Positions 17,467 through 37,941 of a stretch of 48,142 nt of DNA are shown in pieces. Under the pieces are notes generated by a model, which saw nothing but the letters and a program-made list of their open reading frames with translations, was not told where the DNA came from and made no database searches. Within the stretch, counting starts at the first letter, position 1; the number at the start of each line of letters is the position of its first letter. This DNA is from a bacterium (GTDB taxonomy: Bacteria > Zhuqueibacterota > Zhuqueibacteria > Oceanimicrobiales > Oceanimicrobiaceae), in the NCBI GenBank assembly GCA_037446635.1, contig JBBIIG010000006.1:74635-122776 (forward strand), in the 5' to 3' direction. A program made the translations under genes and the position numbers.

Positions 17467-17707
17467 ATGAACTGGCCGAAAGCCGTAATCGCGGGCGTGG
17501 TGGGCGATCGTAGTGAGTCTGTACGACTGGCTGATGCACGGTGTGATCATGGCGTCCACCTATTCGGGCAACGCCCTCTTTGCCACCGATGCCAATCCCC
17601 TGTGGTTTTTCGTGGTGGCGATTTGCGTGGGTATCGCCGGCGCGCTGCTGTTCGGTAAAACTTGCGCAACCTGGGGCGCCGGCGTCAAAGGCGGGGTGAC
17701 CACTTAA
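17467..17707 (+). pseudogene. N-terminal half of a small membrane protein; frameshifted and truncated
   Basis: RBS AAGGAGG then MNWPKAVIAGVVG; frameshift at about 17506; continues IVVSLYDWLMHG...WGAGVKGGVT and stops just after GGTGACC. Confidence 0.8.
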
Positions 17708-17890
17708 ATTCCGGTTCGTCTAAACATAAATCCGCTGCCCACTCAATCCGAGATTTTACTTGACTTTGTAGCCAATCCGATTATATTTGTCAACGACCTT
17801 TCAAGGACAGCCACTCGTAAAAGAGCCATCCAAAATATAGCCGTAACTAATCCACGTAGTGTTTTTTAACCTTTCAGGAGGGAACAGTGT

Positions 17891-18244
17891 ATGCTTAAAA
17901 CATTCACGCAGTACGGCGGTATCGCTCAAACCGCGATTGGTTTGCTCAGCCAATTCGCACCGGGGGTGGGCTCGGCGCTGGGGGCGCAAGCGGCCGGCGG
18001 CAACGTTTTCAATATGCTTTCGGGAGCGGCGCTCAGCTATCTTGGTTTCAAAGGCAACGATAGCACCCAGCGCACGGGGGCGCTGGGAATCGGCGGCGTC
18101 AATGCGATTGTTGGCCTATTGGGGATGTTCGGGGTCAACAACTTGTTTGGCCTGCAACTCAACGAGGGCATGGTCTCCAACATCATCAACCTGGCCATTG
18201 GCGCGTGGGGTCTGTTTGCCGGTCTTTCCAAAAAGACGGCGTAA
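17891..18244 (+). CDS. Small Gly-rich membrane protein (DUF4383-like)
   Basis: RBS AGGAGG; four hydrophobic segments; NxxN(L/M)xxG repeats. Family assignment is tentative. Confidence 0.7.
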   Translation: MLKTFTQYGGIAQTAIGLLSQFAPGVGSALGAQAAGGNVFNMLSGAALSYLGFKGNDSTQRTGALGIGGVNAIVGLLGMFGVNNLFGLQLNEGMVSNIINLAIGAWGLFAGLSKKTA

Positions 18245-18267
18245 AAAGTTTTTCTAAGAATCCATCT

Positions 18268-18297
18268 GGTAGGGGCAATTCATGAATTGCCCCTACC
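18268..18297. repeat. GTAG-type REP palindrome
   Basis: Perfect palindrome GGTAGGGGCAATTCATGAATTGCCCCTACC; related copies at 37286 and 39280. Confidence 0.85.
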
Positions 18298-18316
18298 GGT
18301 AATTTTTAAGGAGGGA

Positions 18317-18562
18317 ATGATGTCCCTGCTTTGGACGATTCTTATCGGGCTTTTGGCCGGCGCGCTGGCCAAATGGATCATGCCGGGGAAAGATCCCGGC
18401 GGGTTGATCGTAACCGCACTGATCGGCATCATCGGCGCGGTGGTCGCCACCTACCTCGGTCAGTTCCTCGGCATTTATCATGCCGGCGAAACCGCGGGAT
18501 TTATTGGCGCGGTGGTGGGCGCGCTTATTGTGCTGTGGGTTTACCGGCGAGTGCGAAAGTAA
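18317..18562 (+). CDS. GlsB/YeaQ/YmgE (transglycosylase-associated) membrane protein
   Basis: IGLLAGALAKWIMPGKDPGG..GIIGA..FIGAVVGALIVL; RBS AAGGAGG. Confidence 0.9.
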   Translation: MMSLLWTILIGLLAGALAKWIMPGKDPGGLIVTALIGIIGAVVATYLGQFLGIYHAGETAGFIGAVVGALIVLWVYRRVRK

Positions 18563-18582
18563 ATTGCAATTCGGTTAAAAAC

Positions 18583-18625
18583 AAAAAGCCGGTTTGCAGA
18601 AATTACCCTGCCGATCGGCTTTTTT
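18583..18625 (+). terminator. Probable intrinsic terminator
   Basis: AAAAAGCCGGT...ATCGGCTTTTTT stem with T tail after the GlsB-family gene. Confidence 0.55.
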
Positions 18626-18708
18626 ATTTGCTGAACCCCAAAAACGGCGCACTTGATTATTCCAAAAAATCCTGAATATATTCATTCAAAAAACAGAAAG
18701 GTTGAATC

Positions 18709-19620
18709 ATGGCGGTTGCTCAAATTCAGCTTCATCCCGAAGTGGGCCAAACTTTTTCGCGTGTCGCCGTGGGATTTTGGAGAGCGGCGCAGTGGCAACT
18801 GAGCAGAAAAGATTTGTGGGCGCTTATCGAAGGCGCGCTGGAGTTGGGAATGACTACGTTCGATCACGCGGATATTTACGGCAACTACACTTGCGAAAGC
18901 CTGTTTGGCGACGCGCTGGCGGAACATCGGTCGCGGCGCTCGGAGATGCAGTTGGTGACCAAATGCGGCATCAAACTCGTTTCAGAAAAATTTCCAGAGC
19001 ACAGCGTCAAACACTACGACACCAGCACGCAACACCTCCTCGCGGCGGCTGAGCGTTCGCTCAAAAATCTGCGCACCGATTATCTCGACCTGCTGCTCAT
19101 CCACCGCCCCGATCCCTTCATGAACGCCGACGAAGTGGCCGCCGCGTTTACCACCCTGCGCGCCGCCGGCAAAGTGCGCCACTTCGGGGTCTCCAATTTC
19201 ACGCCGCCGCAATTTGAGCTGCTGGCGTCGCGGCTGGATTTTCCGCTCATCACCAATCAAGTGGAATTTTCCGTGATGCGCCTCGAGCCGCTGCACGACG
19301 GCACGTTCGATCACTGCCAGCGGCTGCGCATCTCTCCCATGGTCTGGTCGCCTTTGGGCGGCGGACGTTTATTTAGCGAATCCGATGAAAGCGCCCGGCG
19401 AGTTCGCGCGGCGCTGCGCGAAGTTGGCCAGATGCTCGGCGCCGATATCGGACAAACCGCGCTGGGGTGGATTCTCGCGCATCCGGCGCGGGTTCAGCCG
19501 GTACTTGGAACAGGGAAATTAGAAAGAATTCGGCAAGCGGCAGCCGCGACTTCCCTGCAGATGACGCGCGAGCAGTGGTTCACCATCTGGTGCGCCGCGG
19601 CGGGACGGGACGTTCCTTAA
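18709..19620 (+). CDS. Aldo/keto reductase (YdhF-like)
   Basis: TFDHADIYG, TKCGI, LLIHRPD, GVSNF, NQVE, WSPLGGG. Confidence 0.92.
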   Translation: MAVAQIQLHPEVGQTFSRVAVGFWRAAQWQLSRKDLWALIEGALELGMTTFDHADIYGNYTCESLFGDALAEHRSRRSEMQLVTKCGIKLVSEKFPEHSVKHYDTSTQHLLAAAERSLKNLRTDYLDLLLIHRPDPFMNADEVAAAFTTLRAAGKVRHFGVSNFTPPQFELLASRLDFPLITNQVEFSVMRLEPLHDGTFDHCQRLRISPMVWSPLGGGRLFSESDESARRVRAALREVGQMLGADIGQTALGWILAHPARVQPVLGTGKLERIRQAAAATSLQMTREQWFTIWCAAAGRDVP

Positions 19621-19650
19621 AAATTGCTGGATAGAGGATGAAGGTTGAAA

Positions 19651-20727
19651 TTAGTTTGAGGAAGGATTCCCGCCGTAATACTTGGGATGCAGCCGCGTGC
19701 CGAGGGTTTCAAGCACATCGCGATTGGCATTAAAAAATCGCAGCACAGCTCTGGGACTCACAAAATAGGCGGTGCCGTATTCCACCACAATTTCCCTTCT
19801 GACAACGAGATCCGTTACATCTTCAAATCCTAATTTATACCCCATCGGCAAATTGGTGGAAGGCGCGATAAAATCCAACGTGGCGCGCGGCACGCTTTTG
19901 ATGACGCCCACAAACAGCAGCCGGGCGTCTTTCGTGAGGGCGAATACCGGGCCTCCGGAAAATCCAAAGCGCACCACCGCGTCCACAATCAGGGTATTAG
20001 GGTAGGGCGATGGACTCACCCAGCCGCCGGTCAACTGCTTGACCCCCTTTGGAAAGCCGAAAAGAAACACCCAGTCACCCCAACTGAGATCCAAATCATA
20101 ACCGAGGGGATTGTAGAATTCCTTTCCCAACAGGTTGGTGGTCTGGGTTTCGATAATCGCGAGGTCGTCGAGCTCGTATGAAATCAGCAGCTTCCCTTCG
20201 GAGCGCCAGTTGCTTTCGCCGCGCACCCAAATATCCACTCTTTTTACAATGTAGCGCGCAAAGAGCACGTCGGTGTTGCGGCCGTCCTGGTCGAGGTAAT
20301 AGATGTCGGTGGTATCCGGAGGCGCAACCAGGTGATTACTGGTTAAAATGGTGTAGCGCGAATGCGCCGGATTGACATGAATGATAAGGCCGCCGCCCGA
20401 CAAGGTTTTTTCCTCTGTCTCAACCACAATCCCGTCCGCACCGTTCTTGCCGGCCAGCTTGTATTTTAATGGACTCTTAGGATCGGGTACAAAACTGCCG
20501 TTCTCCTGTTCATAATTAAACTTTTGAATTTCGTATTTAATATCGCAAGTAATGCTCACGACGGTAGTCGAAACATTTCTGATTTCGGTTTTGATGTCAT
20601 CTGAGAACAGGGAGAGATCAGCAGAATTTGAAAATGCGATTTTGCCGCCGGCGCAACCTCCCAAAGCGGTCGGTAGGATCGCAGAATAAAAAAGCAGATT
20701 AATTATTTTGGTGATGGGGCGCGTCAT
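19651..20727 (-). CDS. Trypsin-like serine protease lipoprotein
   Basis: Lipobox LGGC; putative triad in LTSNH, DDLAII and GFSGGPV. Confidence 0.75.
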   Translation of the reverse strand: MTRPITKIINLLFYSAILPTALGGCAGGKIAFSNSADLSLFSDDIKTEIRNVSTTVVSITCDIKYEIQKFNYEQENGSFVPDPKSPLKYKLAGKNGADGIVVETEEKTLSGGGLIIHVNPAHSRYTILTSNHLVAPPDTTDIYYLDQDGRNTDVLFARYIVKRVDIWVRGESNWRSEGKLLISYELDDLAIIETQTTNLLGKEFYNPLGYDLDLSWGDWVFLFGFPKGVKQLTGGWVSPSPYPNTLIVDAVVRFGFSGGPVFALTKDARLLFVGVIKSVPRATLDFIAPSTNLPMGYKLGFEDVTDLVVRREIVVEYGTAYFVSPRAVLRFFNANRDVLETLGTRLHPKYYGGNPSSN

Positions 20728-21224
20728 AATTTCAACTGTGAGATAAGCGCGTCACGAATTCGCTTTAGATCGGATTTTTTAGAACGCAGCAATTGCCGGC
20801 GCTTGCTTTCAACTATATCAACAACCTTTTTAACGTTGATGCCTAAAAAGACGGGTCGAAATGGTTTAAGTTTCCAGAGCGCATTGCGGAAGTGTTTTTC
20901 GGCGCCGTGAACAATATTGCGCTCCAACTGGTGCAGGCCGGCAGCCACTTGAATTAATCCCTGAAAAAAAAGACGGCTGTTTTCCGGATGGCGCTTCCAA
21001 ACCTCCTCCCACGCCTCATGCGACTCCCAAAACTTGCCCCCGTTGAATAATACAATGCCGCGGCGGAAATCATCCCAATCCTGGCCGCTCATTTTCGGCT
21101 CGCTCAAATTGGATAGGTTGGCCTGGCGCTGGCGTTTTTCAACAGTACCCATAAAGGTCAAACGGCAGACGGAGCCCTCAGCGTCCCTTTGCAGGATGAC
21201 GTCACGAATGGATTTTCTGTCCAT
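20724..21224 (-). CDS. DUF309-domain protein
   Basis: GIVLFNGGKFWESHEAWEEVW, FQGLIQVAAGLH. Confidence 0.85.
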   Translation of the reverse strand: MDRKSIRDVILQRDAEGSVCRLTFMGTVEKRQRQANLSNLSEPKMSGQDWDDFRRGIVLFNGGKFWESHEAWEEVWKRHPENSRLFFQGLIQVAAGLHQLERNIVHGAEKHFRNALWKLKPFRPVFLGINVKKVVDIVESKRRQLLRSKKSDLKRIRDALISQLKL

Positions 21225-21327
21225 TTGCGATATGTCATCGGAAATTCTCTGAATTTTTTATCCATCGAAATTTACAATATTCAGACACTCAAACTCAACT
21301 ATTGTTTTTTGATGGAGAGGTTTCAAT

Positions 21328-21360
21328 AGATGGGACTCATCTTTGAGATGAGTCCCATCT
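21328..21360. repeat. REP-like palindrome AGATGGGACTCATCT-TTG-AGATGAGTCCCATCT
   Basis: Perfect 15-bp arms immediately downstream of coxA. Confidence 0.8.
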
Positions 21361-21367
21361 GGTCCAT

Positions 21368-23020
21368 TCACTTCAGCCACACTGTTGGTGTGTATTCGTA
21401 CGCCTCTTCCGTCACCACCGGCGTTTTCTCAAAATTGTGCGTGGTGGGCGGCGAGGGCGCTTTCTCCCATTCTAATCCTTTTGCGCCCCAGGGATTGGCG
21501 CTGGCTTTCGGCGCGTATTTCAATGACCAGATAAAATAGACCAGCGGAATCAAATAGCCCACGCCCAAAATGGTCGCGCCGGCGGTGGAAAGCACGTTGA
21601 AAATTTGGAACTCATCCGGATACACATGATAGCGGCGCGGCATCCCCAAATAACCCACGATGAACTGCGGGAAAAACGTCAGGTGGAAGCCGATGAAAAT
21701 CACCAGCGCTGAAAATCGCGCCCAGCCTTCGGGATAGAGCCGGCCGGTCATTTTCGGCCACCAGTAGTGAATGCCGCCGAGGTAGCCCATGATCGCGCCG
21801 CCCACCATGATGTAATGAAAATGCGCGACCACGAAATAGGTATCATGCACGTGTACGTCCACGGCTAGTGTGCCGAGGAAAATTCCCGTAAGCCCGCCGA
21901 TGGTGAATAGCCCGATGAAGCCGAGGGCATAGAGCATCGGCGCTTGATAGGAGACCGAACCTTTGTAGAGCGTCGCCGTCCAGTTGAACACTTTGATGGC
22001 GGAGGGAATCGCCACCAAAAACGTCAGCACGGAGAACACCATGCTGGCGTAGGTGGACTGGCCGGCGGTGAACATGTGATGCCCCCACACCAGAAATCCT
22101 AACACCGCAATGGCGATGCTGGAAAACGCAATGAAGTGATAGCCGAAAATTTTCTTTTTGGCGAAGCAGGTGATGATCTCGCTGATGACGCCCATCGACG
22201 GCAGAATCATGATATAGACCGCCGGGTGCGAATAAAACCAGAACAAATGCTGGAACAGCAGCGGGTCGCCGCCTAATTTTGGATCGAAGATGCCGATGTG
22301 AAAGAGGCGTTCGAGTCCCACCAACACGATGGCGATGGCCACCACTGGCGTCCCCAAAATTTGAATGATGCTGGTGGCGTAATGCGCCCACACGAACAGC
22401 GGCAGCCGGAACCACGTGAGCCCCGGCGCACGCATCTTGTGAATGGTGACGAGAAAATTGAGCCCAGTCAAAATGGATGAAAAGCCGGTGATGAACACGC
22501 CCACCGCCGTGATGATCACGTTGGTGTTGGCGTAGGTGCTGCTGTACGGCGTGTAAAAAGTCCAGCCGGTATCGACGCCGCCAAAGACGATCGCGGCGAT
22601 GGTGAGCAGACCGCCAACCATATAAATGTACCAACTCAGCAAGTTGATGCGCGGAAACGCGAGGTCGCGGGCGCCGATCATCAGCGGCAACAGAAAATTT
22701 CCCAGCACCGCCGGAATCGATGGGATCAAAAAGAAAAAGATCATCACGATGCCGTGCATGGTGAACATTTTATTATAAGTTTCGGATTGCATGAGGTCGC
22801 CCTGCGGCGTCAGCAGTTCCATACGGATGAACACCGCAAACAATCCGCCGAGGAAAAAGAACAGCGTGATGGAGATGAGATACAAAATGGCGATGCGCTT
22901 GTGGTCGGTGGTCAACAGCCACGACTTGGCGCTGAAGCCGGCGTTGAGATAGTTACGGCTCGTGCCGTTGGTCTCATCGGCCAGTTGTTTTTCGTGAGGC
23001 TTAAAAACCGCCGTTGGCAT
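21368..23020 (-). CDS. coxA: Cytochrome c oxidase subunit I, A2-type
   Basis: [23 protein letters not shown] (YS motif, no Glu, typical of A2), WGHHM, AHFHY, GMPRRY. Confidence 0.97.
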
Positions 23021-23049
23021 GTTACACTACTCCCAGTGTGAATGTGATA

Positions 23050-23105
23050 CCTCACCCTAACCCTCTCCAAATTCCTTCCCCTCTTAGGGGAAGGTTAGGA
23101 TGGGG
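23050..23105. repeat. CCTCACCCT-AACCCTCTCC / GGGGAAGGTTAGGATGGGG repeat (empty form)
   Basis: Related copies at 26694-26781, 26889-26920 and 31635-31735. Confidence 0.8.
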
Positions 23106-23192
23106 TCTGTTTTTATCCCTACAAGTTTCTCTGAAGGGTGTACCAAGTTAAAGTCATTAACCCTTAATTATCGCGACTATAATTATTTTGAC

Positions 23193-24125
23193 TTAGTCTT
23201 TCGCCAGCGATTTAATATACGCGGTTATTTCTAGCAACTGCAGTTCGGTGACCTGTCCCATGAATGTGGGCATTACCGGACGGTAACCGGCGGCAATCTT
23301 AGCATTCGGATTCAAAATCGATTCGCGGATGTAGGCTTCATCGGCGATGACGGTCTGGCCGTTCTGCAGCCGCACCGGCTTGCCGAAAATTCCCACGAGC
23401 GACGGCCCACGCGCATCGGGTTTATCGACGTGGCAGGTGTGACAGGCGAGTTGCTGAAAACGTCTCTCGCCCAGCACCTCCAGCGGTTCGGTGCCGGCGC
23501 CGCCGCTGAGCCAGTTCTGATAATCGTTCGGCTCCATCACCACCACGCGGCCTTTCATCTCCGAGTGCTTGGTGCCGCAATACTCGGCGCAGAACAAGTG
23601 GTACTCGCCGGGCTTGGTGGCCTCGAACCACATCGTGGTGTACCGCCCCGGCACCACGTCCTTTTTCACCCGAAACGCCGGGATGTAAAAACTGTGAATG
23701 ACATCCTCGGTGGCCATGGTTAGTTTTATCGGCTGGCCCATTGGGACGTGCATCTCGTTAATCTCGCGCTGGCCAGTGGGATGCTGCACGTGCCACATCC
23801 ACTGTTTGCCTACCACAAAAAATTCCAGCGCATTTCGCGGCGGCGTGTAAGCGTCGAAATAGAGGGTGGCGCCCCAGGCGAACACGGTCATCACCAAAAT
23901 GAAGGGAATTACGGACCACACCAGTTCCAGCTTCAGCAGTCCGGGAATTTGGCGCGGCACTTCTTCCTCAGAGCGCCGCCGATATTTGACGGCGAAGATG
24001 TAAATCAAAAAGAAGATCAGCAGCGTGAAAAAGATGCTGACGCCCACGAGAAAGAAGAAAAGCAAATCCGTTTTTGGCGCCAGCGCCGAGGCCTGGTCGG
24101 GGAAGAATTGGAATCCTTTGTTCAT
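23193..24125 (-). CDS. coxB: Cytochrome c oxidase subunit II with C-terminal cytochrome c (caa3-type)
   Basis: DVIHSF, CuA motif CAEYCGTKHSEM, heme motif CHTCH. Confidence 0.96.
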   Translation of the reverse strand: MNKGFQFFPDQASALAPKTDLLFFFLVGVSIFFTLLIFFLIYIFAVKYRRRSEEEVPRQIPGLLKLELVWSVIPFILVMTVFAWGATLYFDAYTPPRNALEFFVVGKQWMWHVQHPTGQREINEMHVPMGQPIKLTMATEDVIHSFYIPAFRVKKDVVPGRYTTMWFEATKPGEYHLFCAEYCGTKHSEMKGRVVVMEPNDYQNWLSGGAGTEPLEVLGERRFQQLACHTCHVDKPDARGPSLVGIFGKPVRLQNGQTVIADEAYIRESILNPNAKIAAGYRPVMPTFMGQVTELQLLEITAYIKSLAKD

Positions 24126-24193
24126 GTTCGATTAAGTTGAGAATTGACAATTAACAATTAACAATTGTTAATGGTGAATTGTTAATTGGCGGT

Positions 24194-25105
24194 TCACGGT
24201 ATCCGGTTTTCGATTTTCGTTTTCCGTTTCGCGACCCGATCCCGGCGCAGCATCAGCAGCATAAACGATCCCAGCGCCAGCACCGTCGCGATGCCAGCGA
24301 CGCGAATGACGTTCATGATCACCACGCCGTATTTGCCGGTGGCCGGATCGTAATGATAGCAATAGAGGAGAAGCTGATCCACCGGCGATCCGATTTTGTT
24401 CGTTGCGGCTTCCATTAAGCCCAATTTCAAATCGCGGCTGGAGTATTCGACGCCGTAAAAATATTTCGAGAGTTTGCCCGTGGGCGTCAACACCATGATG
24501 CCGCTGGCGTGCACGAATTGGCCGGTCAGCGGATCTCTGGTGTATTTAAATCCCACCGCTTCGGTCAATTTTTTGATCGACTCGGGATCGCCGGTTAAAA
24601 AATGCCAGCCGTTTTCCGCGCCCGGCCGCGCATATTTGCTGAGGTAGCTGGTTTTCTTCGCCACTGCCAATGCCGGCGTTTCGGCGGGATCGAAGCTCAC
24701 CGTCAAAATATCAAACTCTTTTCCCACGTCGAACGAAAGCACGTTGATGCTTTTCAGCAAACCGTTGAGGATCATCGAACACAGCATCGGGCATTCGTAA
24801 TAAACCAGCGTCAGCACCACCGGCTTCTCGCCAAAATATTTTTGCAGTTGCACGGACTCGCCGCTTTCGTCGCGAAACGTCAATCCCAGCGGGATCGATT
24901 CGTCCAGCCGCTGCTCGATGCCGATTTGATCCAGTATCTCCGGTTTGACATTTGAGCTGATGGATTGTGAATTGGCCGGCGTTTCAACCACGCAGAGCGC
25001 AGAGAGCATAGCGCATAGCGTGAAGCGGGTGGCTATCTTCAATCTTTTATCGTCTATCTTCCATCTTCGGACCTCCATCCTCAATCTTCTATCTTCTATC
25101 TTCAT
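24194..25105 (-). CDS. SCO/SenC copper chaperone
   Basis: CPMLC motif, WHFLTG, HASG, CYHYDPATGKY. The N-terminus is built from heptamer repeats. Confidence 0.92.
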   Translation of the reverse strand: MKIEDRRLRMEVRRWKIDDKRLKIATRFTLCAMLSALCVVETPANSQSISSNVKPEILDQIGIEQRLDESIPLGLTFRDESGESVQLQKYFGEKPVVLTLVYYECPMLCSMILNGLLKSINVLSFDVGKEFDILTVSFDPAETPALAVAKKTSYLSKYARPGAENGWHFLTGDPESIKKLTEAVGFKYTRDPLTGQFVHASGIMVLTPTGKLSKYFYGVEYSSRDLKLGLMEAATNKIGSPVDQLLLYCYHYDPATGKYGVVIMNVIRVAGIATVLALGSFMLLMLRRDRVAKRKTKIENRIP

Positions 25106-25524
25106 GGCCGTTCTCCCCGATTTCCGTTTTCCGGTTTGCGATTTCCGCTTTTCGATTCCTGCGCCGGGAAACCGCGCTCGAGCATCAACGCCATCGCGCG
25201 CTCCACCGGGATGCGCACCACGCCGGCTTCTTTTGACACCCAGCCGTAGCTGTTCACGAGCGAGTCTTCTTTGGCGCGGATTGTTTTTAAATCGATCTCC
25301 GGTGTCACTTGTAGCCGCGGTTCCGGCGGCAACGGACGGCCTTCTACCAACGGTGATGATGGAGTTGCCGTCGCCTGCTGTCGTGATTCAAAATGGCCAA
25401 GCAAAATGTACATCAGCGCGAACGCCGCGACCATCAAAATCACCAGTGCGCCGCCGCCCCAAAGGATGGCGCGGAAACGGGCGTCGCTGGTCTCGTAGCC
25501 TTTTGAGTTGGTTGGTTCACTCAT
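25102..25524 (-). CDS. ACIII/oxidase-cluster single-pass membrane protein (ActG-like position)
   Basis: One TM segment, PPEPRLQ, YGWV..GVVRIPVERAM; lies between actF and sco. Confidence 0.7.
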   Translation of the reverse strand: MSEPTNSKGYETSDARFRAILWGGGALVILMVAAFALMYILLGHFESRQQATATPSSPLVEGRPLPPEPRLQVTPEIDLKTIRAKEDSLVNSYGWVSKEAGVVRIPVERAMALMLERGFPAQESKSGNRKPENGNRGERP

Positions 25525-26680
25525 GATGAAACGCCTCTTTCATGCGCGGATCGTTGATGGGCAGCAGCGGCCGCGTTTTAAGCTGCCAGACGAACGCCGC
25601 GATCCACAAGCCGCCGATGCCAAGCGGCGCAGCAAGGTCCATCCAGTGGACGCTGAATTTTTCGGGATGGAAATTCGGCGCGATAATCCAAAACAGATCG
25701 ACGAGCCGCATGACGATCATCGCCAGCGCCACTTTCGACAGAATCTCGATGCGCCGTTTGGTTTGCCGCGACAGCAGCAGCACAAACGGAATCGCAAAAT
25801 GAAAAACCACGATCGCCAGCGCGATCCACTGCCAGCCGCCGTGGAGTCGATGCAAATACCACGGAATTTCTTCCGGCAAATTTCCCGACCAGATGATGAT
25901 GAATTGCGACAGCGAAATGTACGCCCACAGCATCACAAACGCCAACAGCAAATTGCCGAGATCGTGAAAGTGTTTGGTCTGCACCACATCCGACAGCGGC
26001 TTGTGCGCCACTAACCGGCTCAACGCCACGATGGCAAATGCCATCGTTAGCACCGCCTGTCCGATCACAAAAACAAATCCGAAGATGGTGGAGAACCAGT
26101 GCGGGTCGAGCGACATCACCCAATCGATGGAGGCGAAGGTGATGGTCAAAACGTAGAGCAGCATCGCCGGGCCGCCGAGTTTTCGCAAACGCTCGACCAG
26201 CGATGGATTTGCATTTCTATCTTGATCCACCGACCATTTATTGACGAAGAAGATCAACATTCCCCAAATGCCGAAATAAGCGGTGGTGCGCAACCAGAAA
26301 GAAGAAACGTTGAGGTAAGCGGCTTTGTGCAGCAAGATTTTATCCGTGGCAACTTTCTCGGGATCTGCCCAAAGGTAAAGCTCCTGCATTCCAAAAAAGA
26401 AGGGGACGAACAGAATCGCCAGCAGCGGTAGAGTGCGGGTGGCGGATTCCAGCACGCGCTGAATGGCGAATCCCCAGCCGCCGCCAACCATGTGGTGCAG
26501 CGCCAATAGCGCCAGACTTCCCAGCGCCAGCCCAATCCAGAAAAGATATCCCAGCAAATAGGATTGGTAAAATTGGCCGAGGTTCTGAAATGCACCGAAG
26601 CCGCACAGCGCCAGCGCCGCCGCGCCGATGATCAGCGCACGCGTTTGAATGCGATTGAGTTGTATTTCTAAGGTTTCCAT
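25517..26680 (-). CDS. actF: Alternative complex III membrane subunit ActF
   Basis: LYLW, HKAAYLN, DWVMSLDPHWFSTIFG, HDLGNLL, SQFIIIWSGNLPEEIPWY; about 10 TM segments. Confidence 0.88.
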   Translation of the reverse strand: METLEIQLNRIQTRALIIGAAALALCGFGAFQNLGQFYQSYLLGYLFWIGLALGSLALLALHHMVGGGWGFAIQRVLESATRTLPLLAILFVPFFFGMQELYLWADPEKVATDKILLHKAAYLNVSSFWLRTTAYFGIWGMLIFFVNKWSVDQDRNANPSLVERLRKLGGPAMLLYVLTITFASIDWVMSLDPHWFSTIFGFVFVIGQAVLTMAFAIVALSRLVAHKPLSDVVQTKHFHDLGNLLLAFVMLWAYISLSQFIIIWSGNLPEEIPWYLHRLHGGWQWIALAIVVFHFAIPFVLLLSRQTKRRIEILSKVALAMIVMRLVDLFWIIAPNFHPEKFSVHWMDLAAPLGIGGLWIAAFVWQLKTRPLLPINDPRMKEAFHHE

Positions 26681-26693
26681 TCTTCTTCAAGAA

Positions 26694-26920: not shown

Positions 26921-26938
26921 CGTCTACAACATTCGGGC

Positions 26939-28761: not shown

Positions 28762-30048
28762 TTAAATCAAAATCCCGGCAATGGTGGCGGTGAGCCACGA
28801 CGCCAGCGCGCCGCCGATCATCGCTTTGAGGCCGATGCGGGCCAGGTCGTGTTTGCGTTCCGGCGCGATGCCGCCAATGCCGCCAATTTGAATGGCGATG
28901 GAGCTAAAATTGGCAAACCCGCACAGGGCGTAGGTGGCAATCGTGAACGAGCGCGGCGAGAGCTGATCTTTCCATTCTCCCAACTGCACGTATGCCACGA
29001 ACTCGTTGATCGCCACTTTGGTGCCGAGCAGGTAGCCGAAGTCGCGAATGTCGGCGGTCTCCACGCCCATCACCAGCGCGATGGGTGAAAATATGAAGCC
29101 GAGAACCTTCTTTAAACTCAAATTTTCCCAGCCAAAGAGCAATCCGAATTTTAGGAAGAAAAAATCCAGCATCGCAATCAACGCGATGAACGCCAGCAGC
29201 ATGGCGCCCACGTTCATCGCCAATTTGAGGCCATCGGCGGCGCCGCTGGCCGCGGCATCCACCACGTTGGCGGTGGTTTTTTCAATGCTGACCTTGACTT
29301 CGCCTTTGGTTTTGGGCTCCTCGGTTTCGGGGAAAATGATCTTCGCCATCACCAGCGCCGCCGGCGCCGACATCACGCTCGCCGCCATCAAGTGGCCGGC
29401 GTCCACCCCAAAACGCACGTACGCCGCCATCACTCCACCGGCGATGGTGGCGAAGCCGCCGGTCATCACCGCCATCAGCTCCGACAGGGTCATGGTGGAA
29501 ACATAAGGTCGAATGAGCAGCGGCGCCTCGGTTTGTCCCACAAAAATGTTGGACGCCACGGAAAGGCTTTCCGCGCCGCTGGTACCCATGAAACGCGCCA
29601 TCACCCAGGCCACGCCCTGCACCACTCGCTGCATCACCCCCAGGTGGTACAAAATCGACATCAGCGAGGCAAAGAAGATGATGGTGGGCAGCACATGAAT
29701 CGCAAATACAATTCCGATGTTGATGAAATCGCCGGAAACCGAATCACGGATTTGAAACGGGCCGCCGCCGCCGAGCGCTTTCACCAGGTCGGTGTCGCCG
29801 CGGTAGAGGTTGCCAAACAGGAACGACGCGCCGGCGTCGGTAAAGCTCAGCAGTTTGGTGATGGCGGCTTTGGCGTAAAAGAACACCGCCTGGCCGGGCG
29901 TTGTTTTTAAAATGATAACGGCAAACACCACTTGCAGCAGCACTCCCCACAGCACGACGCGGTAATTGATTTGCCGCTTGTTGTTAGAAAGCAACCATGC
30001 AATACCAAGCAAAACAAAAACGCCGACAAAGCTGACAAGTCGCTCCAT
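28762..30048 (-). CDS. nupC: Concentrative nucleoside transporter (NupC/CNT family)
   Basis: NIFVGQTEAPL, GFATIAGG, MSAPA, NEFVAY, LCGFANFSSIAI. Confidence 0.95.
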   Translation of the reverse strand: MERLVSFVGVFVLLGIAWLLSNNKRQINYRVVLWGVLLQVVFAVIILKTTPGQAVFFYAKAAITKLLSFTDAGASFLFGNLYRGDTDLVKALGGGGPFQIRDSVSGDFINIGIVFAIHVLPTIIFFASLMSILYHLGVMQRVVQGVAWVMARFMGTSGAESLSVASNIFVGQTEAPLLIRPYVSTMTLSELMAVMTGGFATIAGGVMAAYVRFGVDAGHLMAASVMSAPAALVMAKIIFPETEEPKTKGEVKVSIEKTTANVVDAAASGAADGLKLAMNVGAMLLAFIALIAMLDFFFLKFGLLFGWENLSLKKVLGFIFSPIALVMGVETADIRDFGYLLGTKVAINEFVAYVQLGEWKDQLSPRSFTIATYALCGFANFSSIAIQIGGIGGIAPERKHDLARIGLKAMIGGALASWLTATIAGILI

Positions 30049-30075
30049 TTTTCCCTCCTGATTTTCGAGATTGGT

Positions 30076-30663
30076 TTATTCGTTTCCGCGAAGTGGTTCA
30101 GTATCTGATGGCGGCTCAAAGCAATTCCGGCATCTCGCCTCGTACATGTCGGTGGCGCCAACCAGCACGCGATCTTTTTCTTTGGTGATGCGCTGAGTAC
30201 GGTTGGCGGGGTTGCCGCACTTCACGCAGATGGCGAGAGTTTTGGTGATGGACTCAGCGATGGCCAGCATTTGCGGCATAGGCTCGAACGGCTTGCCGCG
30301 GTAATCCTGATCCAGGCCGGCGACGATCACGCGCTTGCCCTGGGCGGCGAGTTTTTCGCACACCTCCACCAGCTCCAGCCCGAAAAATTGCCCCTCATCG
30401 ATGCCCACCACTTTGGCGTCGCGAGAGCGCTCTAAAATTTCATACGCGCTGCGCACCGAAACCGAGGGTATTTTTTGCTCGCTGTGCGAGACGATGTGAT
30501 CGTTGGAAAAACGCGTATCGATAAAGGGCTTAAAAATCGCTACCTGCTGGCGGGCGATTTGCGCGCGCCGCAGCCGGCGAATCAACTCTTCGGATTTGCC
30601 GCTGAACATGCTGCCAACGATAACTTCAATCCAGCCCATCTCATTGGAAAAGGTGTCTAACAT
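30076..30663 (-). CDS. tdk: Thymidine kinase
   Basis: [28 protein letters not shown], zinc-site CVKC..CRNC. Confidence 0.96.
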
Positions 30664-30700
30664 AGCTGCCTCTGTAATTGGTGATGACAGAAAAAAGCTG

Positions 30701-30841
30701 AAATTTCAAACGCAAATAACAAACCCCAAATAAATCTCAAAACAAAAAAATCACAATTACCAAAACCAGGCATCATCACGGATTTTGAATTTTCGAAATT
30801 GAATATTGGATTGTTATTTGATTTTTGAGATTTATGTTTGG
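30701..30841. repeat. Inverted degenerate heptamer array (AAATCAC/AAATCTC versus GATTTTT)
   Basis: An A-rich 7-bp-periodic tract is followed by a complementary T-rich tract between udk and tdk. Confidence 0.6.
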
Positions 30842-31471
30842 TCATTCCCGCTCTCTGAGCAGTGCCTCGATTTTGGTTTTGATCAAATCAATCGCCACTT
30901 TATTGTAGCCGCCCTCCGGGATGATGATGTCCGCGTAGCGTTTGGTAGGCTCCACGAATTGCAGGTGCATCGGGCGCACGCTTTCTTCGTACTGGCGAAT
31001 CACCGACTCCAGGGTGCGCCCGCGTTCCAAAATGTCGCGTTTCAAGCGGCGGATGAAGCGGATGTCGGGATCGGTGTCCACGTAGATTTTGATGTCCATC
31101 AAATCCCGCAGCGCCGGGTTATCGAAAATCAAAATGCCCTCTAGCACAATGATGGCGTGCGGGCCGATGGCTTGCGTGCTGGAGGTGCGCGTGTGCGTCA
31201 CAAAATCATAAATCGGCGGGAAGATGGTTTGTCCGTTCAGCAGCGCTTTCATATCTTTGATCAAAAGATCGGAGTCGATGGCATCCGGATGATCGAAATT
31301 GTGGCGGCTGCGCTCCTCGAGGGAAAGATGGCTGAGACTTTTGTAATAGGAATCCTGGCAAAGGATGATCACCCGATCCGATCCCAGCTCGGAATAGATA
31401 TTTTGGGAAACCAGCGTTTTCCCCGATCCCGTTCCACCGGCAATACCGATTAAAATTCCCCGTTCTGACAA
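30842..31471 (-). CDS. udk: Uridine kinase
   Basis: IGIAGGTGSGKT, NFDHPDAID, RRLKRDILERGR, PTKRYADII. TTG start at 31471 with an AGGAGA RBS. Confidence 0.95.
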   Translation of the reverse strand: MSERGILIGIAGGTGSGKTLVSQNIYSELGSDRVIILCQDSYYKSLSHLSLEERSRHNFDHPDAIDSDLLIKDMKALLNGQTIFPPIYDFVTHTRTSSTQAIGPHAIIVLEGILIFDNPALRDLMDIKIYVDTDPDIRFIRRLKRDILERGRTLESVIRQYEESVRPMHLQFVEPTKRYADIIIPEGGYNKVAIDLIKTKIEALLRERE

Positions 31472-31490
31472 ATTTATTTTTCTCCTGATT

Positions 31491-31877
31491 GCCACAAAGA
31501 CACCGAGTGCACAGAGCGGTGCTTTTCTAGCAAAATTTTTTAACCGCAAAGAACGCAAAGGCCGCTAATAAAAAGCAAATTTTTTCCCTTGCGTCTTTAC
31601 ACCATTTCAAAAATTCTTGTAGGGATACCCATCACCTCACCCTTCCGCGAAGCGGATCCGCTTTGGCGGAAACCCTCTCCTTAAAGAGGAGAGGGCACGT
31701 GATCCCTTCCCCTAAAAGGGGAAGGTTAGGATGGGATCTGCTCTTGAGAAGTATCTAGATTTCCAAACCATACAAAAATTCCTGAAACGGAGTACTTAGC
31801 GAACTTTGCGGTTGATTTGGTTGCCTGCCTGTGCCGACCAGCGGCTTTGCACGCTGTGCTCTCCGTGTCTCTGTGGC
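31491..31877. repeat. Multiply nested inverted-repeat composite between cdd and udk
   Basis: Outer arms 31491-31514/31854-31877; second arms 31542-31560/31795-31813; CCTCACCCT element 31635-31735 carrying a 27-bp insert at 31644-31670. Confidence 0.8.
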
Positions 31878-31884
31878 TGATTTT

Positions 31885-32295
31885 TTACGCGCTGCGGTTT
31901 TCCAAAAACTTTTTCCCAAACGCCTCCGGCAGCAGCTCCGCAATCGTCGTCTCTTTGGTTTTGCCCAGCGAATTCAGAAGGATGATTTTCAGATTTGGCG
32001 CATACTCGTACAGCACCTGCCGGCACGCCCCACACGGTGGACACAACTCCCGCGTGTTCGCCGTTATCACCATCGTGGCAAATTCTCTTTCCCCTTCCGA
32101 GAGCGCTTTGAACATTGCCACGCGCTCAGCGCAAATCGTCAGTCCGTAGGAGCTGACTTCGATGTTGCAGCCAAAGTAGAGCTTGCCGGATTTGGTTTCC
32201 AGCACCGCGCCCACTGGAAAATTGGAATAGGGCGCGATGGCGCGCTGCTGCGCTTGTTTGGCGTATTCTAAAAGATCGGAGAGATTATGTTTCAC
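31885..32295 (-). CDS. cdd: Cytidine deaminase (tetrameric type)
   Basis: APYSNFPVGA, GCNIE, ICAER, PCGACRQ. Confidence 0.96.
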   Translation of the reverse strand: MKHNLSDLLEYAKQAQQRAIAPYSNFPVGAVLETKSGKLYFGCNIEVSSYGLTICAERVAMFKALSEGEREFATMVITANTRELCPPCGACRQVLYEYAPNLKIILLNSLGKTKETTIAELLPEAFGKKFLENRSA

Positions 32296-32336
32296 AATGC
32301 GTTCCTGACATTTGAAATTTGTCTGTTCCAGCCTAC

Positions 32337-32373
32337 CCCTCTCGATCCCACGCTCTGCGTGGGATCGAGAGGG
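32337..32373. repeat. REP palindrome TCCCACGCTCTGCGTGGGA family
   Basis: CCCTCTCGATCCCACGC-TCT-GCGTGGGATCGAGAGGG; related copies at 42226 and 42452. Confidence 0.85.
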
Positions 32374-32382
32374 TTTTGTGGT

Positions 32383-32412
32383 AAAAAAAATCCGAGAATG
32401 AATCTCGGATTT
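32383..32412 (-). terminator. Intrinsic terminator after ssb
   Basis: Minus strand AAATCCGAGA-TTCAT-TCTCGGA followed by T8. Confidence 0.7.
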
Positions 32413-32473
32413 CTAAACTGATGAAAGGCTGTGTATCGTGCGTCTAAAATCAACTCTGGCTCCGCTTGGTAAT

Positions 32474-32917
32474 TTAAAAAGGCAGATCGTCTTCTTCCTG
32501 AGGTCCCGGGCCTTCGGGAGCAGGCGGCGCGTCGGCATCGGAAGGCGGCGGCACAGCCGAGCGCCCGCCGTCGGATTTGGAATCGAGCATGGTCAAGGCG
32601 TCGGCAATGACCTCGGTCATGTATCTTTTAATGCCGTCTTTATCTTCCCAGGAGCGGGTTTGCAAGCGCCCCTCGACATAAACTTTGCTGCCTTTTTTCA
32701 GCCACTCGCCGGCAATTTCGGCCAATCTTCTCCAAAGTACCACGCGGTGCCATTCCGTACGTTCTTGTTTGTTGCCGTCGTTATCCTTCCAGACCTCGTT
32801 GGTAGCCACACTCAAAGTTGTCACAGCCGCCCCATTTGGAGTATATCTTAACTCCGGATCTTGGCCTAAATTACCCACCAGGATCACTTTGTTCACCGAG
32901 CCCTTACCAGTGGCCAT
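32474..32917 (-). CDS. ssb: Single-stranded DNA-binding protein
   Basis: [30 protein letters not shown], acidic C-terminus DDLPF. Confidence 0.97.
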
Positions 32918-33631
32918 AACACGCCCTCCTCACTTTTAAAATGAATAATGTTTGGATTTTGGTTATCGTAACAAAAAATATTTATAATGTCAAGAATTTT
33001 TTCTGAGGGAAGTTCAGTATTTGAAAAATCTTACCATCGCGCTGATTTTGTGAGCGTAAACCGCGTTTGAAATTGTCATATCGAAAAGAAGGCTTCATAA
33101 TGCCATGTTCTCCATAAGCCAACATAAGCACTACTAATCTTTTAAAAATAGCCGCCGTTTTTTTGAAAACTTTCGCCGTTATATGACCAGTTCTCGTATA
33201 TTTTTTCTTGACATTCACTCGCAATTTTAGAGATCTGGGGACGAATTACAGACACCGTTTGTGAATCGCGAATCCATCCTATATCGAATCTTTAAAACAT
33301 CTATCCGCTATGTCAACATATTTGGCCCCAGCGGCTATGACTTTCTTGTGAAATAAGTTATTACTTTGGCTTTGATCTTGTTTCGGACACCCTCTTTAAG
33401 CCCCCTTATGTTAAAACCGTAAATAATGTTTATTGCACCAAGAATTGAATAGTAGATTAGCATCAAGGTTTTGAGCGAGTTATCAAAAAATGCTGGAAGC
33501 AAACCAATGACAAACCCCGTAACAATCCTCAAAGATTTCCGTTAAAGCAAAATAAATCTGACAACCATTTTCCTTTCTCGTCAGTCTTATAAAACATCAC
33601 TGCCACGTTTTGAAATCTTGGAGGCGAGGTT

Positions 33632-34321
33632 ATGATCCGAACACAGAATCTCAAGAAACTCTATACCACTGAGGAAGTGGAAACCACGGCGTTGAACAAC
33701 GTCAATCTCGAAATTCACCCCGGCGAGTTTGTGTCCATCATGGGGCCGTCGGGATGCGGCAAGTCCACCCTGCTGAATTTGCTGGGCTTGCTGGACAATC
33801 CCTCCGAGGGCGAGCTGTTCTTCCTCGATGAGGAGGTGGCGAAGTACAGCGAGCGCCAGCGCGCCAATCTGCGCAAACAGAACATCGGCTTCGTGTTTCA
33901 AAGCTTCAATCTCATTGACGAGCTGACGGTGTTCGAGAACGTCGAGCTGCCGCTGCTCTATTTGGGCGTCTCCACCTCCGATCGCAAAAAGCGCGTGGAA
34001 GAGGCGCTGGAAAAAATGCAGATCATGCACCGCCGTAACCATTTTCCGCAGCAGCTTTCCGGCGGACAGCAGCAGCGCGTGGCCGTGGCGCGCGCGGTGG
34101 TGGCTCGTCCCAAACTGATTTTGGCGGACGAACCCACCGGCAACCTTGACTCCGCCAACGGCGAAGAAGTGATGCAAATTCTCGCCGCCCTCAACGAAGA
34201 AGGCACGACCATCATCATGGTCACGCACTCGCCAGCGTATGCCGAGTACGGGCATCGCATCGTGCATTTGTTCGATGGGCACGTGGTGAGCGAAAATATT
34301 CGCGAGCGGTACCAGGCGTGA
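33632..34321 (+). CDS. MacB/LolD-type ABC transporter ATP-binding protein
   Basis: GPSGCGKST, IGFVFQSFNL, LSGGQQQRVAVARA, LADEPTGNLD, VTH. Confidence 0.93.
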   Translation: MIRTQNLKKLYTTEEVETTALNNVNLEIHPGEFVSIMGPSGCGKSTLLNLLGLLDNPSEGELFFLDEEVAKYSERQRANLRKQNIGFVFQSFNLIDELTVFENVELPLLYLGVSTSDRKKRVEEALEKMQIMHRRNHFPQQLSGGQQQRVAVARAVVARPKLILADEPTGNLDSANGEEVMQILAALNEEGTTIIMVTHSPAYAEYGHRIVHLFDGHVVSENIRERYQA

Positions 34322-34392
34322 GGGCTATTCAGTATCATTACGAGCTTTGATGACTGCGTCATTTTATTGGAAAGGAAATTTCTGACTCCAAT

Positions 34393-34610
34393 GCGATTGC
34401 TTCGTCCCGACCTGCGAGGCGCTTTTTGCCTGCCCGCCAGAGGCCTTAGGCCGGCGGGCTGAAGCCGTCCCATCGAATGAGCAACTTCCTTAGAAAGAGC
34501 GCAGCGACGAAGTAAATCCCATGATTTGATCACCAAATCATGAGATTGCTTTGCTAGGCTTGCAATGACACTTACCATTTTTGAATATCCGAGCGAGAAT
34601 TGTCATTGCA
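34393..34610. repeat. Degenerate GTCATTGC / GATTGCTTCG..GCAATGAC-type repeat cluster
   Basis: gcgattgcttcg at about 34393; gagattgctttgctaggcttgcaatgaca at 34542-34570; tgtcattgcaa at 34601. Confidence 0.5.
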
Positions 34611-34646
34611 AAACTTGGAAACGACTGAAAAATGAATTGAAGTTGA

Positions 34647-37286
34647 ATGCTGAGAGCTAAATTTTTAATCACAATTACTCTGTTGTTCACCCTGACGCCG
34701 TTGCTCGCCGGCGACGACGACGCCCTCACCCGACGAAAGGAATTCCGCGCGAACCGGATCGAAAGTGAGTCGCCGCGAATCGACGGCATCCTCGATGACG
34801 CGGCGTGGCAGGCCGCGGAATTTTTCTCCGACTTTTTGCAGAAAGATCCGGACGAAGGCGCCGCGCCCTCGAATCGCACCGAGATTGGAATTCTTTACGA
34901 CGAACATGCCATCTACATCGGCGCGCGCATGTTTTTCGATCAACCTGAACAAATTCGCGCGCAAGTCAGCCGCCGCGACAACAACGGCAACTCCGACCGC
35001 ATCATCGTTTCCCTCGACACCTACTGCGACCGCCGCACCGCCTACACTTTTGTAGTCACCGCCGCCGGCGTGCGCGTTGATTACTATCACTCTGCCGACG
35101 ACGAATACAATCGCGATCATTCCTACAACCCGGTGTGGGACGCCGACGCTTACATCGGACCGGACGGCTGGAGCGCCGAGATGCGCATCCCATTTTCGCA
35201 ACTGCGCTTCCGAAACGCCGCCGAGCAGGTGTGGGGCATCAACATCAACCGCTTCATCCCCAGCACCAACGAAGATTTGTACTGGGTGATGATTCCCAAA
35301 AACGAAACCGGCTGGGCATCGAAATTTGGAAATTTGGTCGGCATCAAAAATATTCCAGCGGCGCGGCGCATCGAACTGCTGCCGTACGAAACCAGCAGCG
35401 CCACCTTCACCAGCGGCACCCACCCCGACGATCCCTTCAACGACAGCAGCGAGTTCACCTCGCGCGCCGGCGCCGATTTGAAAATGGGACTCGGCTCAAA
35501 TTTGACGCTGGACGCCGCTATCAATCCGGATTTCGGGCAGGTGGAGGCGGATCCGGCGGAAGTCAACCTCACCGCGTTCGAAACCTTTTTCGATGAGAAG
35601 CGGCCGTTTTTCATCGAGGGCAGCCAGCTGTTCGACAACATCGGCCCGAGGTTTTTCTATTCGCGGCGAATCGGCGCGCCGCCGCACGGTTCGGTGGAAG
35701 GCGATTTTCGCGACGTACCGGACAACACCACGATTGTCTCAGCGGCAAAGTTGACTGGTCGTTTGAATTCCGGTCTGTCCATCGGCGCGCTGACGGCGTT
35801 GACCGCACGCGAACATGCCCGTTCATTTTTTGCCGCCACGGATTCCAACGCTGCCCGGCGCGAAAAACATGAAGTGGAGCCGTTGAGCGGTTTTGGCGTC
35901 CTACGGCTGCAGCAGGAATTTGGGAAGTCGTTTTCCACGGTGGGATTGATGTTCACCGGCATTCGCCGCGACCTCTCGGCCGGCGAGCCGCTGGCAGCAG
36001 TGTTGAATCGCCAGGCCTATTCCGGCAACGCCGATTGGAATCTCCGCTTTCGCGATGGAAAATATGTGCTGCAAGGTTTCGCCGGATTCTCTTATATTGA
36101 AGGCGAGCCGCTGGCCATCGTGCGCGCCCAGCGATCCAGTGCGCGCTATTTCCAGCGCCCGGACGCCAGCCACGTGCGTCTCGATTCGTCGCGAACTTCT
36201 TTGGCCGGTTTTGCCGGCTCGCTCAGTTTTGATAAACGAAGCGGACGCCACTGGTTGTGGGGCGCGGACTTCGGCGCCCATTCGCCCAACTTTGAGTTGA
36301 ACGACGTGGGCATTTTATCCAGCGCTGATATTATTTCCTCCAGCGCTTATTTGACCTATCGCGAGAATACCCCCGGCAAAATTTTTCGAAATTACCAAGT
36401 GCAAACCCTGGTTGCGACCGACTGGAACTTTGACGGCAACCGCACCTTCACGATTCTCGATTTCAACGCCAGCGCGATGTGGAAAAACTTCTGGCGGCAC
36501 GATTTCCATTTTCATTATAAGCTGCCGGCGCTGAGCGACGATTTGACCCGCGGCGGCCCCCTCATGAAAACCGCCTCCGACTGGCATTTGTCCACGGCGC
36601 TGGCCAGTAACTTCGCCGCCAAAATTCCGTGGGACGTGGAGCTCTCCTATATTCGCGATGAGTTGGGCGGTTGGATTTTTGAGGCTTCGGGGGATATTTC
36701 TTTCAAGCCCGGCGCGCGCTGGGAATTTTCGCTGGGGCCGGGATATTTTCGTCAGCTCAATAAACGGCAGTATTTTGATGAGCTCGGCGGCGGACGGCCG
36801 GAGACGTTCGGCCGGCGCTACATTTTTTCCACCATCGAGCGCAGCGAGTTGGCGGCGGAGATTCGACTCAATTACGCCTTCACGCCGGATTTGAGTCTGG
36901 AGTTGTACGCCGAGCCGTTTGTGTCCAGCGGGCGCTGGTTCGATCACGGCGAGTTAGCAGCGTCGCGCAGCAAACGGCTGCGGCGGTATGGCAGCGAGGG
37001 TACCACCGCAACCATCAACCCGGATGGCTCCATCATGGTGACCGACGGCAGCGACGTTTTCGATTTACGCAACCGCGATTTTAACAATCACTTTTTCCGC
37101 AGCAACGTGGTGCTGCGGTGGGAGTGGCGGCGCGGCAGCGCCCTGTTTTTGATCTGGCAGCAGGATCGCTTTTCCTCCCGGCCGCATGGAAGGCTGGTCA
37201 CGCCGGGCCAGCTGCTGGATTCGTTCACCGCGGCCGGCGACAATTTTTTAGCGGTGAAAGTGAGCTACTGGCTGCCAGTGAATTGA
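34647..37286 (+). CDS. Secreted/outer-membrane protein with CBM9-like and DUF5916-like domains
   Basis: Signal peptide, PRIDGILDDAAW, WSAEMRIPFSQLRF, NPDFGQVEAD, FFDEKRPFFIEG, FYSRRIG, and a barrel-like C-terminus KVSYW. Confidence 0.85.
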   Translation: MLRAKFLITITLLFTLTPLLAGDDDALTRRKEFRANRIESESPRIDGILDDAAWQAAEFFSDFLQKDPDEGAAPSNRTEIGILYDEHAIYIGARMFFDQPEQIRAQVSRRDNNGNSDRIIVSLDTYCDRRTAYTFVVTAAGVRVDYYHSADDEYNRDHSYNPVWDADAYIGPDGWSAEMRIPFSQLRFRNAAEQVWGININRFIPSTNEDLYWVMIPKNETGWASKFGNLVGIKNIPAARRIELLPYETSSATFTSGTHPDDPFNDSSEFTSRAGADLKMGLGSNLTLDAAINPDFGQVEADPAEVNLTAFETFFDEKRPFFIEGSQLFDNIGPRFFYSRRIGAPPHGSVEGDFRDVPDNTTIVSAAKLTGRLNSGLSIGALTALTAREHARSFFAATDSNAARREKHEVEPLSGFGVLRLQQEFGKSFSTVGLMFTGIRRDLSAGEPLAAVLNRQAYSGNADWNLRFRDGKYVLQGFAGFSYIEGEPLAIVRAQRSSARYFQRPDASHVRLDSSRTSLAGFAGSLSFDKRSGRHWLWGADFGAHSPNFELNDVGILSSADIISSSAYLTYRENTPGKIFRNYQVQTLVATDWNFDGNRTFTILDFNASAMWKNFWRHDFHFHYKLPALSDDLTRGGPLMKTASDWHLSTALASNFAAKIPWDVELSYIRDELGGWIFEASGDISFKPGARWEFSLGPGYFRQLNKRQYFDELGGGRPETFGRRYIFSTIERSELAAEIRLNYAFTPDLSLELYAEPFVSSGRWFDHGELAASRSKRLRRYGSEGTTATINPDGSIMVTDGSDVFDLRNRDFNNHFFRSNVVLRWEWRRGSALFLIWQQDRFSSRPHGRLVTPGQLLDSFTAAGDNFLAVKVSYWLPVN

Positions 37287-37321
37287 TTGGTAGGGGCGTA
37301 TTGCAATACGCCCCTACCAAT
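37286..37321. repeat. GTAG-type REP palindrome
   Basis: Perfect palindrome ATTGGTAGGGGCGTATTGCAATACGCCCCTACCAAT. Confidence 0.85.
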
Positions 37322-37499
37322 TTTTTTTAGCCGCTGGTTGCTTATACACCAGCGCGGCCACTGCTCCGAAAATCAACCAGCCAATCAAAGTGATTGCGCC
37401 CCAGCACCAGCTCAGATAGTAGGGGAAGCCGTTGAAGACCAGCGGGCTGTAAAACTGCGCGAAGAAAGAAACCAGCCCGATGAAGAGCCCGAAGGTCAC
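37314..37499 (-). pseudogene. C-terminal half of the membrane protein whose N-terminal half is at 17467-17701
   Basis: VTFGLFIGLVSFFAQFYSPLVFNGFPYYLSWCWG...; starts at the shared GGTGACC and joins in frame as GGVT|FGLF. Confidence 0.75.
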
Positions 37500-37941
37500 C
37501 GGGATTTTGTGTGAGCCGCCACCGCTGCGTAGTCGTAAGTCGTAACTTCCAGGCGGTTTCCGTAGGGATCACAGAAGTAAACCGACCAGGCGAGATCGTG
37601 GTCCACCGCTTGGAGTTCATGCACCACCTGGCCGTCTTCATTGTAAAGCGGAGCGCTGGCTGCCTGTTCGAGAAAAGCCAGAAATCCGACGCCGTCCACC
37701 CGAAACGCAAGCCAGCGGAAACCCACAATCGGGCGCTGGCCCGGCGGCTCGCCCTTGAACAGGGCGAGCTTGGTGGCGCCGCCGTCGCTGGAGATCATGA
37801 GCGGGCCGCCCGCCGCCCAGCTTTCGTAGCCGGGCAAAATTTCAAATCCCAGGACTTGTGATACCATTTGGCGGCGGCTTGATCGGGGACGAAGAATTCA
37901 ATGTGATCGATGGACTGGACACGAAAGGATTCCGGATGCAT
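37496..37941 (-). pseudogene. VOC/glyoxalase family gene with a 1-nt frameshift
   Basis: GGAG RBS, then MHPESFRVQSIDHIEFFVPD..AAKWY; frame changes at about 37860 to QVLGFE..LAFRVD..SVYFCDPYGNRLEVTT. Confidence 0.75.

Follow-up and report, generated by a model that had tools for sequence, protein, structure and literature searches.

We analysed the final 48,142 bases of contig C6 in genome G000 (4.64 Mb in 110 contigs, 97% complete), hereafter the window, in which a conserved gene for a small protein is divided into two halves, separated by 19.8 kb and placed on opposite strands, each half ending in one copy of the same seven bases in inverted orientation. The inversion very probably took place in the organism itself, and the reading that we favour, with a probability of about two in three, is that a single microhomology-guided inversion ran through a dispensable gene and became fixed.

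The split gene and its junctions

For comparison we used a set of 40 related genomes, in which the gene was matched in 15 and its locus retrieved from 14; G001 (74% complete, about 680 contigs) is the sole other genome of the genus besides G000. A search with the N-terminal piece as query returned 51 candidates, among them 11 proteins of 132-140 amino acids (aa). The features of the gene and of its junctions are as follows.

17467-17505, plus strand: first 13 codons of the split gene, before a frameshift; matched in frame 1 by 10 of the 11 homologs
17507-17701, plus strand: remaining N-terminal half, in another frame, with a stop codon at 17705-17707
17695-17701, plus strand: left junction, GGTGACC, within the coding sequence of the split gene
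17702-37493, no strand: segment reversed with respect to relatives, 19,792 bp
37494-37500, minus strand: right junction, GGTCACC, the inverted copy of GGTGACC, carrying the stop codon TGA of the VOC gene and the overlapping GTG of the C-terminal half
37314-37499, minus strand: C-terminal half of the split gene, an open reading frame (ORF) of 61 aa starting from GTG
37496-37867, minus strand: downstream piece of a VOC/glyoxalase-family gene, 108 of 119 residues identical to the intact 149-aa protein P0016
37795-37941, minus strand: upstream piece of the VOC gene, with the true start at 37941, off frame after about 26 codons and stopping after 48

The first-pass annotation of the window had proposed that the two halves belong to one gene and that homologs would run full length across the point where the two 7-mers meet, and both expectations held for all 11 homologs: each aligned in two complementary pieces, with residues ~15-80 on 17507-17701 (plus strand) and residues ~70-135 on minus-strand positions of about 37500 down to 37329. 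At the DNA level, the G001 locus (L002) aligned unbroken to 17364-17700 on the plus strand and then to 37500-37336 on the minus strand, the switch falling inside the heptamer. With both the homologs and the G001 DNA bridging the two halves, these belong to a single gene. The two junctions are identical over exactly 7 bases, and the heptamer is an odd palindrome, GGT-N-ACC, a property that the first-pass annotation did not mention.

Both halves carry further changes. A frameshift near codon 14, also proposed earlier, corresponds to 2 bases missing near 17506 in comparison with G001, and a Cys replaces one otherwise invariant Arg of the N-terminal half; we dropped a Gly-to-Ala change as a mark of decay, as it is common to the intact homolog P0026. 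The C-terminal half is identical to P0026 at 54 of 57 residues and overruns the stop of P0026 and P0005 by four residues, with a TAA present there one base off frame, suggesting from sequence that it lost 1 base near the stop of its homologs. The NCBI annotation calls the pieces as separate proteins of 57, 61 and 123 aa.

At the right junction, the VOC ORF (37496-37867) does keep its TGA inside the heptamer, as first described. P0016 and the window's VOC gene end at the same position, so the flip did not shorten the latter. The VOC gene is itself frameshifted, which had gone unmentioned, and has one codon fewer than P0016. Its stop overlaps the GTG opening the 61-aa C-terminal half (a GTGA overlap at 37496-37499, minus strand), and no ribosome-binding site was evident upstream of this GTG; it is possible that the flip coupled the translation of the C-terminal half to the VOC frame.

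Ancestral order in relatives

The ancestral order was reconstructed with the help of the following landmarks.

12931-16911, plus strand: hybrid histidine kinase gene, the synteny anchor upstream of the split gene in relatives
34647-37286, plus strand: DUF5916 gene, a synteny anchor convergent with the 3' end of the split gene in relatives
17760-18244, plus strand: promoter-like site (10/12 of the consensus) and a 117-aa gene at 17891, both within the reversed segment

In all 14 retrieved loci the split gene is a single intact frame of 131-137 aa. The histidine kinase stands upstream of it in five (G001, G011, G012, G013 and G015), and in three (G012, G013 and G019) DUF5916 runs convergently towards its 3' end. 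The comparison of synteny that had been recommended for this locus gave, in G012, the order kinase, gene and opposite-strand DUF5916, with the same order plus inserts in G013. As this is the order of the window with 17702-37493 reversed, we take the un-inverted order to be ancestral; the stretches from many other relatives were short or rearranged and uninformative on order. An exact-pattern scan of metagenome contigs recovered one locus (L016), with the same identities as the G001 locus and not counted as independent, and no viral contig carrying the locus was found.

On the VOC side, G001 (74% complete) yielded neither the VOC gene nor the 17891 gene, and the 28 VOC loci obtained from genome contigs were distant without exception (best 66%). 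For the intact VOC protein P0016 and for P0019, the homolog of the 17891 product, the longest contig measured 4,080 bases in both cases, and a 4,080-base contig of run X3 aligned to 17740-18565 starting from its position 2020. Since all three share this length, the VOC and 17891 genes were probably neighbours in the ancestral order, as the first-pass annotation had predicted. The 117-aa protein (17891-18244) is glycine-rich, belongs to no Pfam family, was found in only 3 of the 40 relatives and has a 47% identical paralog at G000 C4:45756-46103.

Base composition supports the same polarity. At fourfold sites, the minus-strand genes of the segment have a G share of 0.488 (n=13) against 0.422 in the flanks (n=22; permutation p 0.0036), as expected if they had long lain on the other strand, a shift that fits a recent real flip and an artefact alike. 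Rearrangement as such is common between G000 and G001: 141 adjacent aligned blocks comprised 99 that were colinear, 28 other breaks, 13 at contig edges and one same-contig inversion, which is the present one, included as a positive control.

Origin of the inversion

Among 300,000 inverted breakpoint pairs drawn at random from this genome, 192 shared at least 7 bases (0.00064). The observed match therefore exceeds chance, which argues for its having taken part in the joint. The breakpoints lack a long repeat, the identity ending at 7 bases and none of the largest repeat families listed covering the sites. As the first-pass annotation had noted for recombinases, no transposase or recombinase was detected among the 42 ORFs of the window. 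In the mechanism that we propose, two chance 7-base matches would have been joined crosswise once, by microhomology-guided repair (end joining) or template switching, with no part played by a dedicated recombinase. The flipped form would then have become dominant in the sampled population, presumably tolerated because the cut fell on an accessory gene only and all genes inside the segment moved whole; the 17891 gene moved with its own promoter-like site inside the segment. Both junction genes now appear to be decaying.

Such an event would work like the spontaneous short-repeat inversions described in Salmonella chemostats (PMC3411829). The inversions there are likewise bounded by short identical sequences and no site-specific recombinase is invoked. 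Verified junctions in that study spanned 12-18 bp and occurred at low frequency in the population, whereas here the match is 7 bp, the inverted form is apparently the majority and a gene is cut.

An assembly or library artefact, with the organism un-inverted or mixed and the segment placed backwards by the assembler, is unlikely. Both reciprocal junctions stand on one gap-free stretch (the window holds 0 N letters) and both junction genes are frameshifted, which together favour a real event. Across the genome, 27 of 37 N runs are 10 or 100 N long, suggesting that a short-read graph assembler was used. Such an assembler is not known to confuse a 7-base repeat, and chimeric molecules generally yield single junctions rather than a matched reciprocal pair; we counted both against an artefact.

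To obtain a background rate of gene disruption, we surveyed 444 ORFs from 110 of the ~680 contigs of G001; 113 were without an ortholog at threshold and 62 without a match, leaving 269 that were scored. This resulted in 255 intact orthologs, 3 frameshifted (one on an N gap and one poorly aligned), 6 with stops (one a shadow frame, the other five putative), 3 divided by a contig edge and 2 that were partial, with no second gene-splitting inversion in this sample. Frameshifts on both junction genes stand out from this background of at most 9 in 269. The first-pass annotation had taken the frameshift in the N-terminal half as a sign of real decay rather than misassembly; against the same background decay is indeed the likelier cause of the frameshift, while the support that this lends to a real inversion stays indirect.

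Several points weigh against a real inversion guided by microhomology. The inverted form comes from one assembly only and every relative examined has the gene un-split; the truncated N-half protein comes from this contig alone, a search for a second one returning a single candidate, which was itself. Nine public runs were listed, three of them containing part of the stretch (at best 0.29 of the sampled words), and no RNA run among those listed contains it. The four runs examined, all as contigs, represent relatives and not the source, with contigs that diverge from the window at numerous sites, and no piece or joint listed from public runs crosses either junction. The disruption background covers genes common to G000 and G001 and may be too low for accessory genes: three N4/N6 DNA methyltransferase genes of G000 are in pieces or contain stops (L205/L212, L206 and L207/L208, on C18, C101 and C2), pointing to faster decay of accessory genes than in the surveyed sample. 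Decay at the amino-acid level is slight: the change affects 1 of 30 invariant columns, a number equalled or surpassed in 8 of 25 intact homologs. The ancestral junction on the VOC side was deduced and not seen as DNA, and the plus-strand genes of the segment, only two in number, show no skew shift (p 0.45). Finally, in PMC3411829 the inversion candidates with 7 and 9 bp of microhomology failed verification, the five verified ones having 12-18 bp; this also speaks for an artefact here.

Restriction followed by religation, with a BstEII-type enzyme cutting both GGTNACC sites and a ligase, possibly Ku-LigD, sealing the segment backwards, we consider quite improbable. GGTNACC is the site of BstEII-type enzymes, cut as G^GTNACC to leave 5-base overhangs, and staggered ends at two oppositely oriented sites would fit only the original or the flipped orientation. 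In line with this, GGTNACC stands at both junctions in opposite orientations, such palindromes make up only 3.3% of the 7-mers shared by chance, the gene junction shows neither loss nor gain compared with G001, and genes for Ku and LigD (a 777-aa frame) adjoin on G000 C51:15282-18770. The motif also occurs as a natural methylation motif in a cyanobacterium (10.64898/2026.09.15.751560). However, four further GGTNACC sites inside the segment are unbroken, the motif is barely avoided in the genome (observed/expected 0.96, rank 9 of 64) and it was present at 0 of 6 other tight synteny breaks. Eleven N4/N6 methyltransferase matches were obtained, and the two best loci, inspected by eye, had no recognisable nuclease ORF; for C5 methyltransferases there was no match. 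The palindrome was, moreover, noticed after the fact. A literature search, with most subscription journals outside its reach, turned up no work on this locus and none on inversions arising naturally by restriction and religation. If this improbable route were the true one, the locus would be a natural fossil of restriction and ligation rearranging a chromosome, and the 61-aa half might be translated as a new two-helix protein.

A reversible switch or stray site-specific recombination, in which a tyrosine recombinase would use the 7 bases as crossover core to turn the gene on and off, is very improbable. Seven bases are a typical overlap of tyrosine recombinases, and lambda Int (7-bp overlap), XerCD and the integron integrase IntI provide examples of crossover at secondary sites. 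Here, too, the core is a 7-base identity and the exchange looks conservative; on other contigs the genome encodes three tyrosine recombinases, namely XerD, a XerC-like protein (scoring below cut-off) and an integron integrase, and the outer flanks agree at 5 of the 9 bases that adjoin the heptamer, a small extension that was spotted afterwards. Unlike the sites of these enzymes, the heptamer lacks inverted binding arms, with arm symmetry of 1/15 and 2/15, and it lacks the GTT triplet typical of integron sites; a reading as a dif-like site was dropped for want of arm symmetry. GGTGACC was found at this position in 0 of 13 relatives' sequences, the frameshift near 17506 lies outside the segment, so that a flip back would leave the gene broken, and the resolvase/invertase (PF00239) and IS110 (PF02371) families had no match in the 97% complete genome. 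The integron integrase, above the TIGR02249 cut-off, is encoded at L201:1138-2157 (G000 C9, near a contig end).

The event only resembles the partial-intergenic invertons, or shufflons, of 10.1101/2023.03.11.532203. As in the cases set out in that work, one breakpoint falls in a gene and the other at a gene end, and a flip rejoins the coding halves. Those invertons are driven by recombinases, can flip back and were identified from reads showing either orientation; in the present case, by contrast, the search for an invertase found none, the repeat measures 7 bp and the frameshift blocks restoration. A cognate invertase, a site kept across relatives and a working gene in one orientation are inverton features absent from this locus.

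The least probable alternative is that the nuclease of a small GIY-YIG gene nicked or cut near the left site and so triggered the rearrangement: its flanking repeat does end about 290 bp before that site, as the first-pass annotation had it, and the genome has just 4 GIY-YIG matches, this gene included, but neither breakpoint falls within the flanking repeats (46 copies in the genome), nothing of the kind is present at the right junction, G001 keeps a remnant of the cassette beside an intact gene, and in a close relative the complete cassette probably stands next to an intact gene, since the near-identical GIY-YIG protein P0024 and the intact P0026 occur on 3 contigs each, the longest of 11,061 bases in both cases. 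The causal link, which the first-pass annotation had itself called speculation, is thus unsupported, and we list the gene as a likely bystander.

16913-17408, plus strand: small GIY-YIG gene (17046-17363) between palindromic repeat copies

The 46 copies of this palindromic repeat family often form inverted pairs about 50 bp apart. At 8065-8373 the family occurs in a 135-base tandem duplicate, and a pair of repeats of this type lies between the LigD and Ku genes on C51. In G001 the GIY-YIG gene has shrunk to a short remnant between such repeats.

Gene product and neighbouring features

The product of the split gene is predicted to be a small membrane protein, based on its hydrophobicity and on the model of homolog P0003 (predicted local distance difference test, pLDDT, 77). 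The model is all helical with four long helices, in agreement with the four-TM protein of about 137 aa that the first-pass annotation had predicted, and the predicted length was about right too. None of the 11 homologs had a meaningful Pfam match (PF08570 in 0 of 11 at E <= 0.1), and the one homolog tested against NCBIfam had no match. In the Atlas, the protein falls near unnamed clusters and one DUF1761 cluster (139 aa; feature score 0.92; 16% of members carry PF08570). This resemblance to the small membrane proteins of the DUF1761 (PF08570) type, together with the all-helical model, gives a lead only, as the homologs differ from that family in having neither a PF08570 match nor a clear fold match: fold searches returned nothing clear (best Foldseek E 0.6; best Z 6.9, root-mean-square deviation 3.6, 125 aligned).

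If the microhomology-guided inversion is what happened, the locus records a base-exact inversion of 20 kb on 7 bases that became dominant in an uncultured wild bacterium, and suggests that a conserved small protein is dispensable here. It is likely an instance of a known process, an ordinary mutation and not an on/off switch, involving no new mechanism, and would be useful to annotators and inverton callers as a negative example. Its significance would grow only if both orientations were found in one clone, or if GGTNACC breakpoints recurred.

The other genes of the window include the following.

17702-37493: the reversed segment, containing cytochrome c oxidase genes, a GlgC-like gene, nucleoside transport and salvage genes, and genes for SSB, an ABC ATPase and DUF5916
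33632-34321, plus strand: ABC ATPase gene, with no permease among the neighbouring ORFs scanned (nearby small ORFs were scanned in part)
44159-47557, plus strand: VirB4/TraC-like ATPase gene, under every curated cut-off, accompanied at the end of the contig by a 296-aa gene without a known family

The last two genes are possibly part of a conjugative or secretion element. A second family of hairpins, resembling repetitive extragenic palindromic (REP) elements, occupies intergenic positions in the window (18269-18296, 37285-37322 and 39283-39310) and on many other contigs, some copies having terminator-like T tails.

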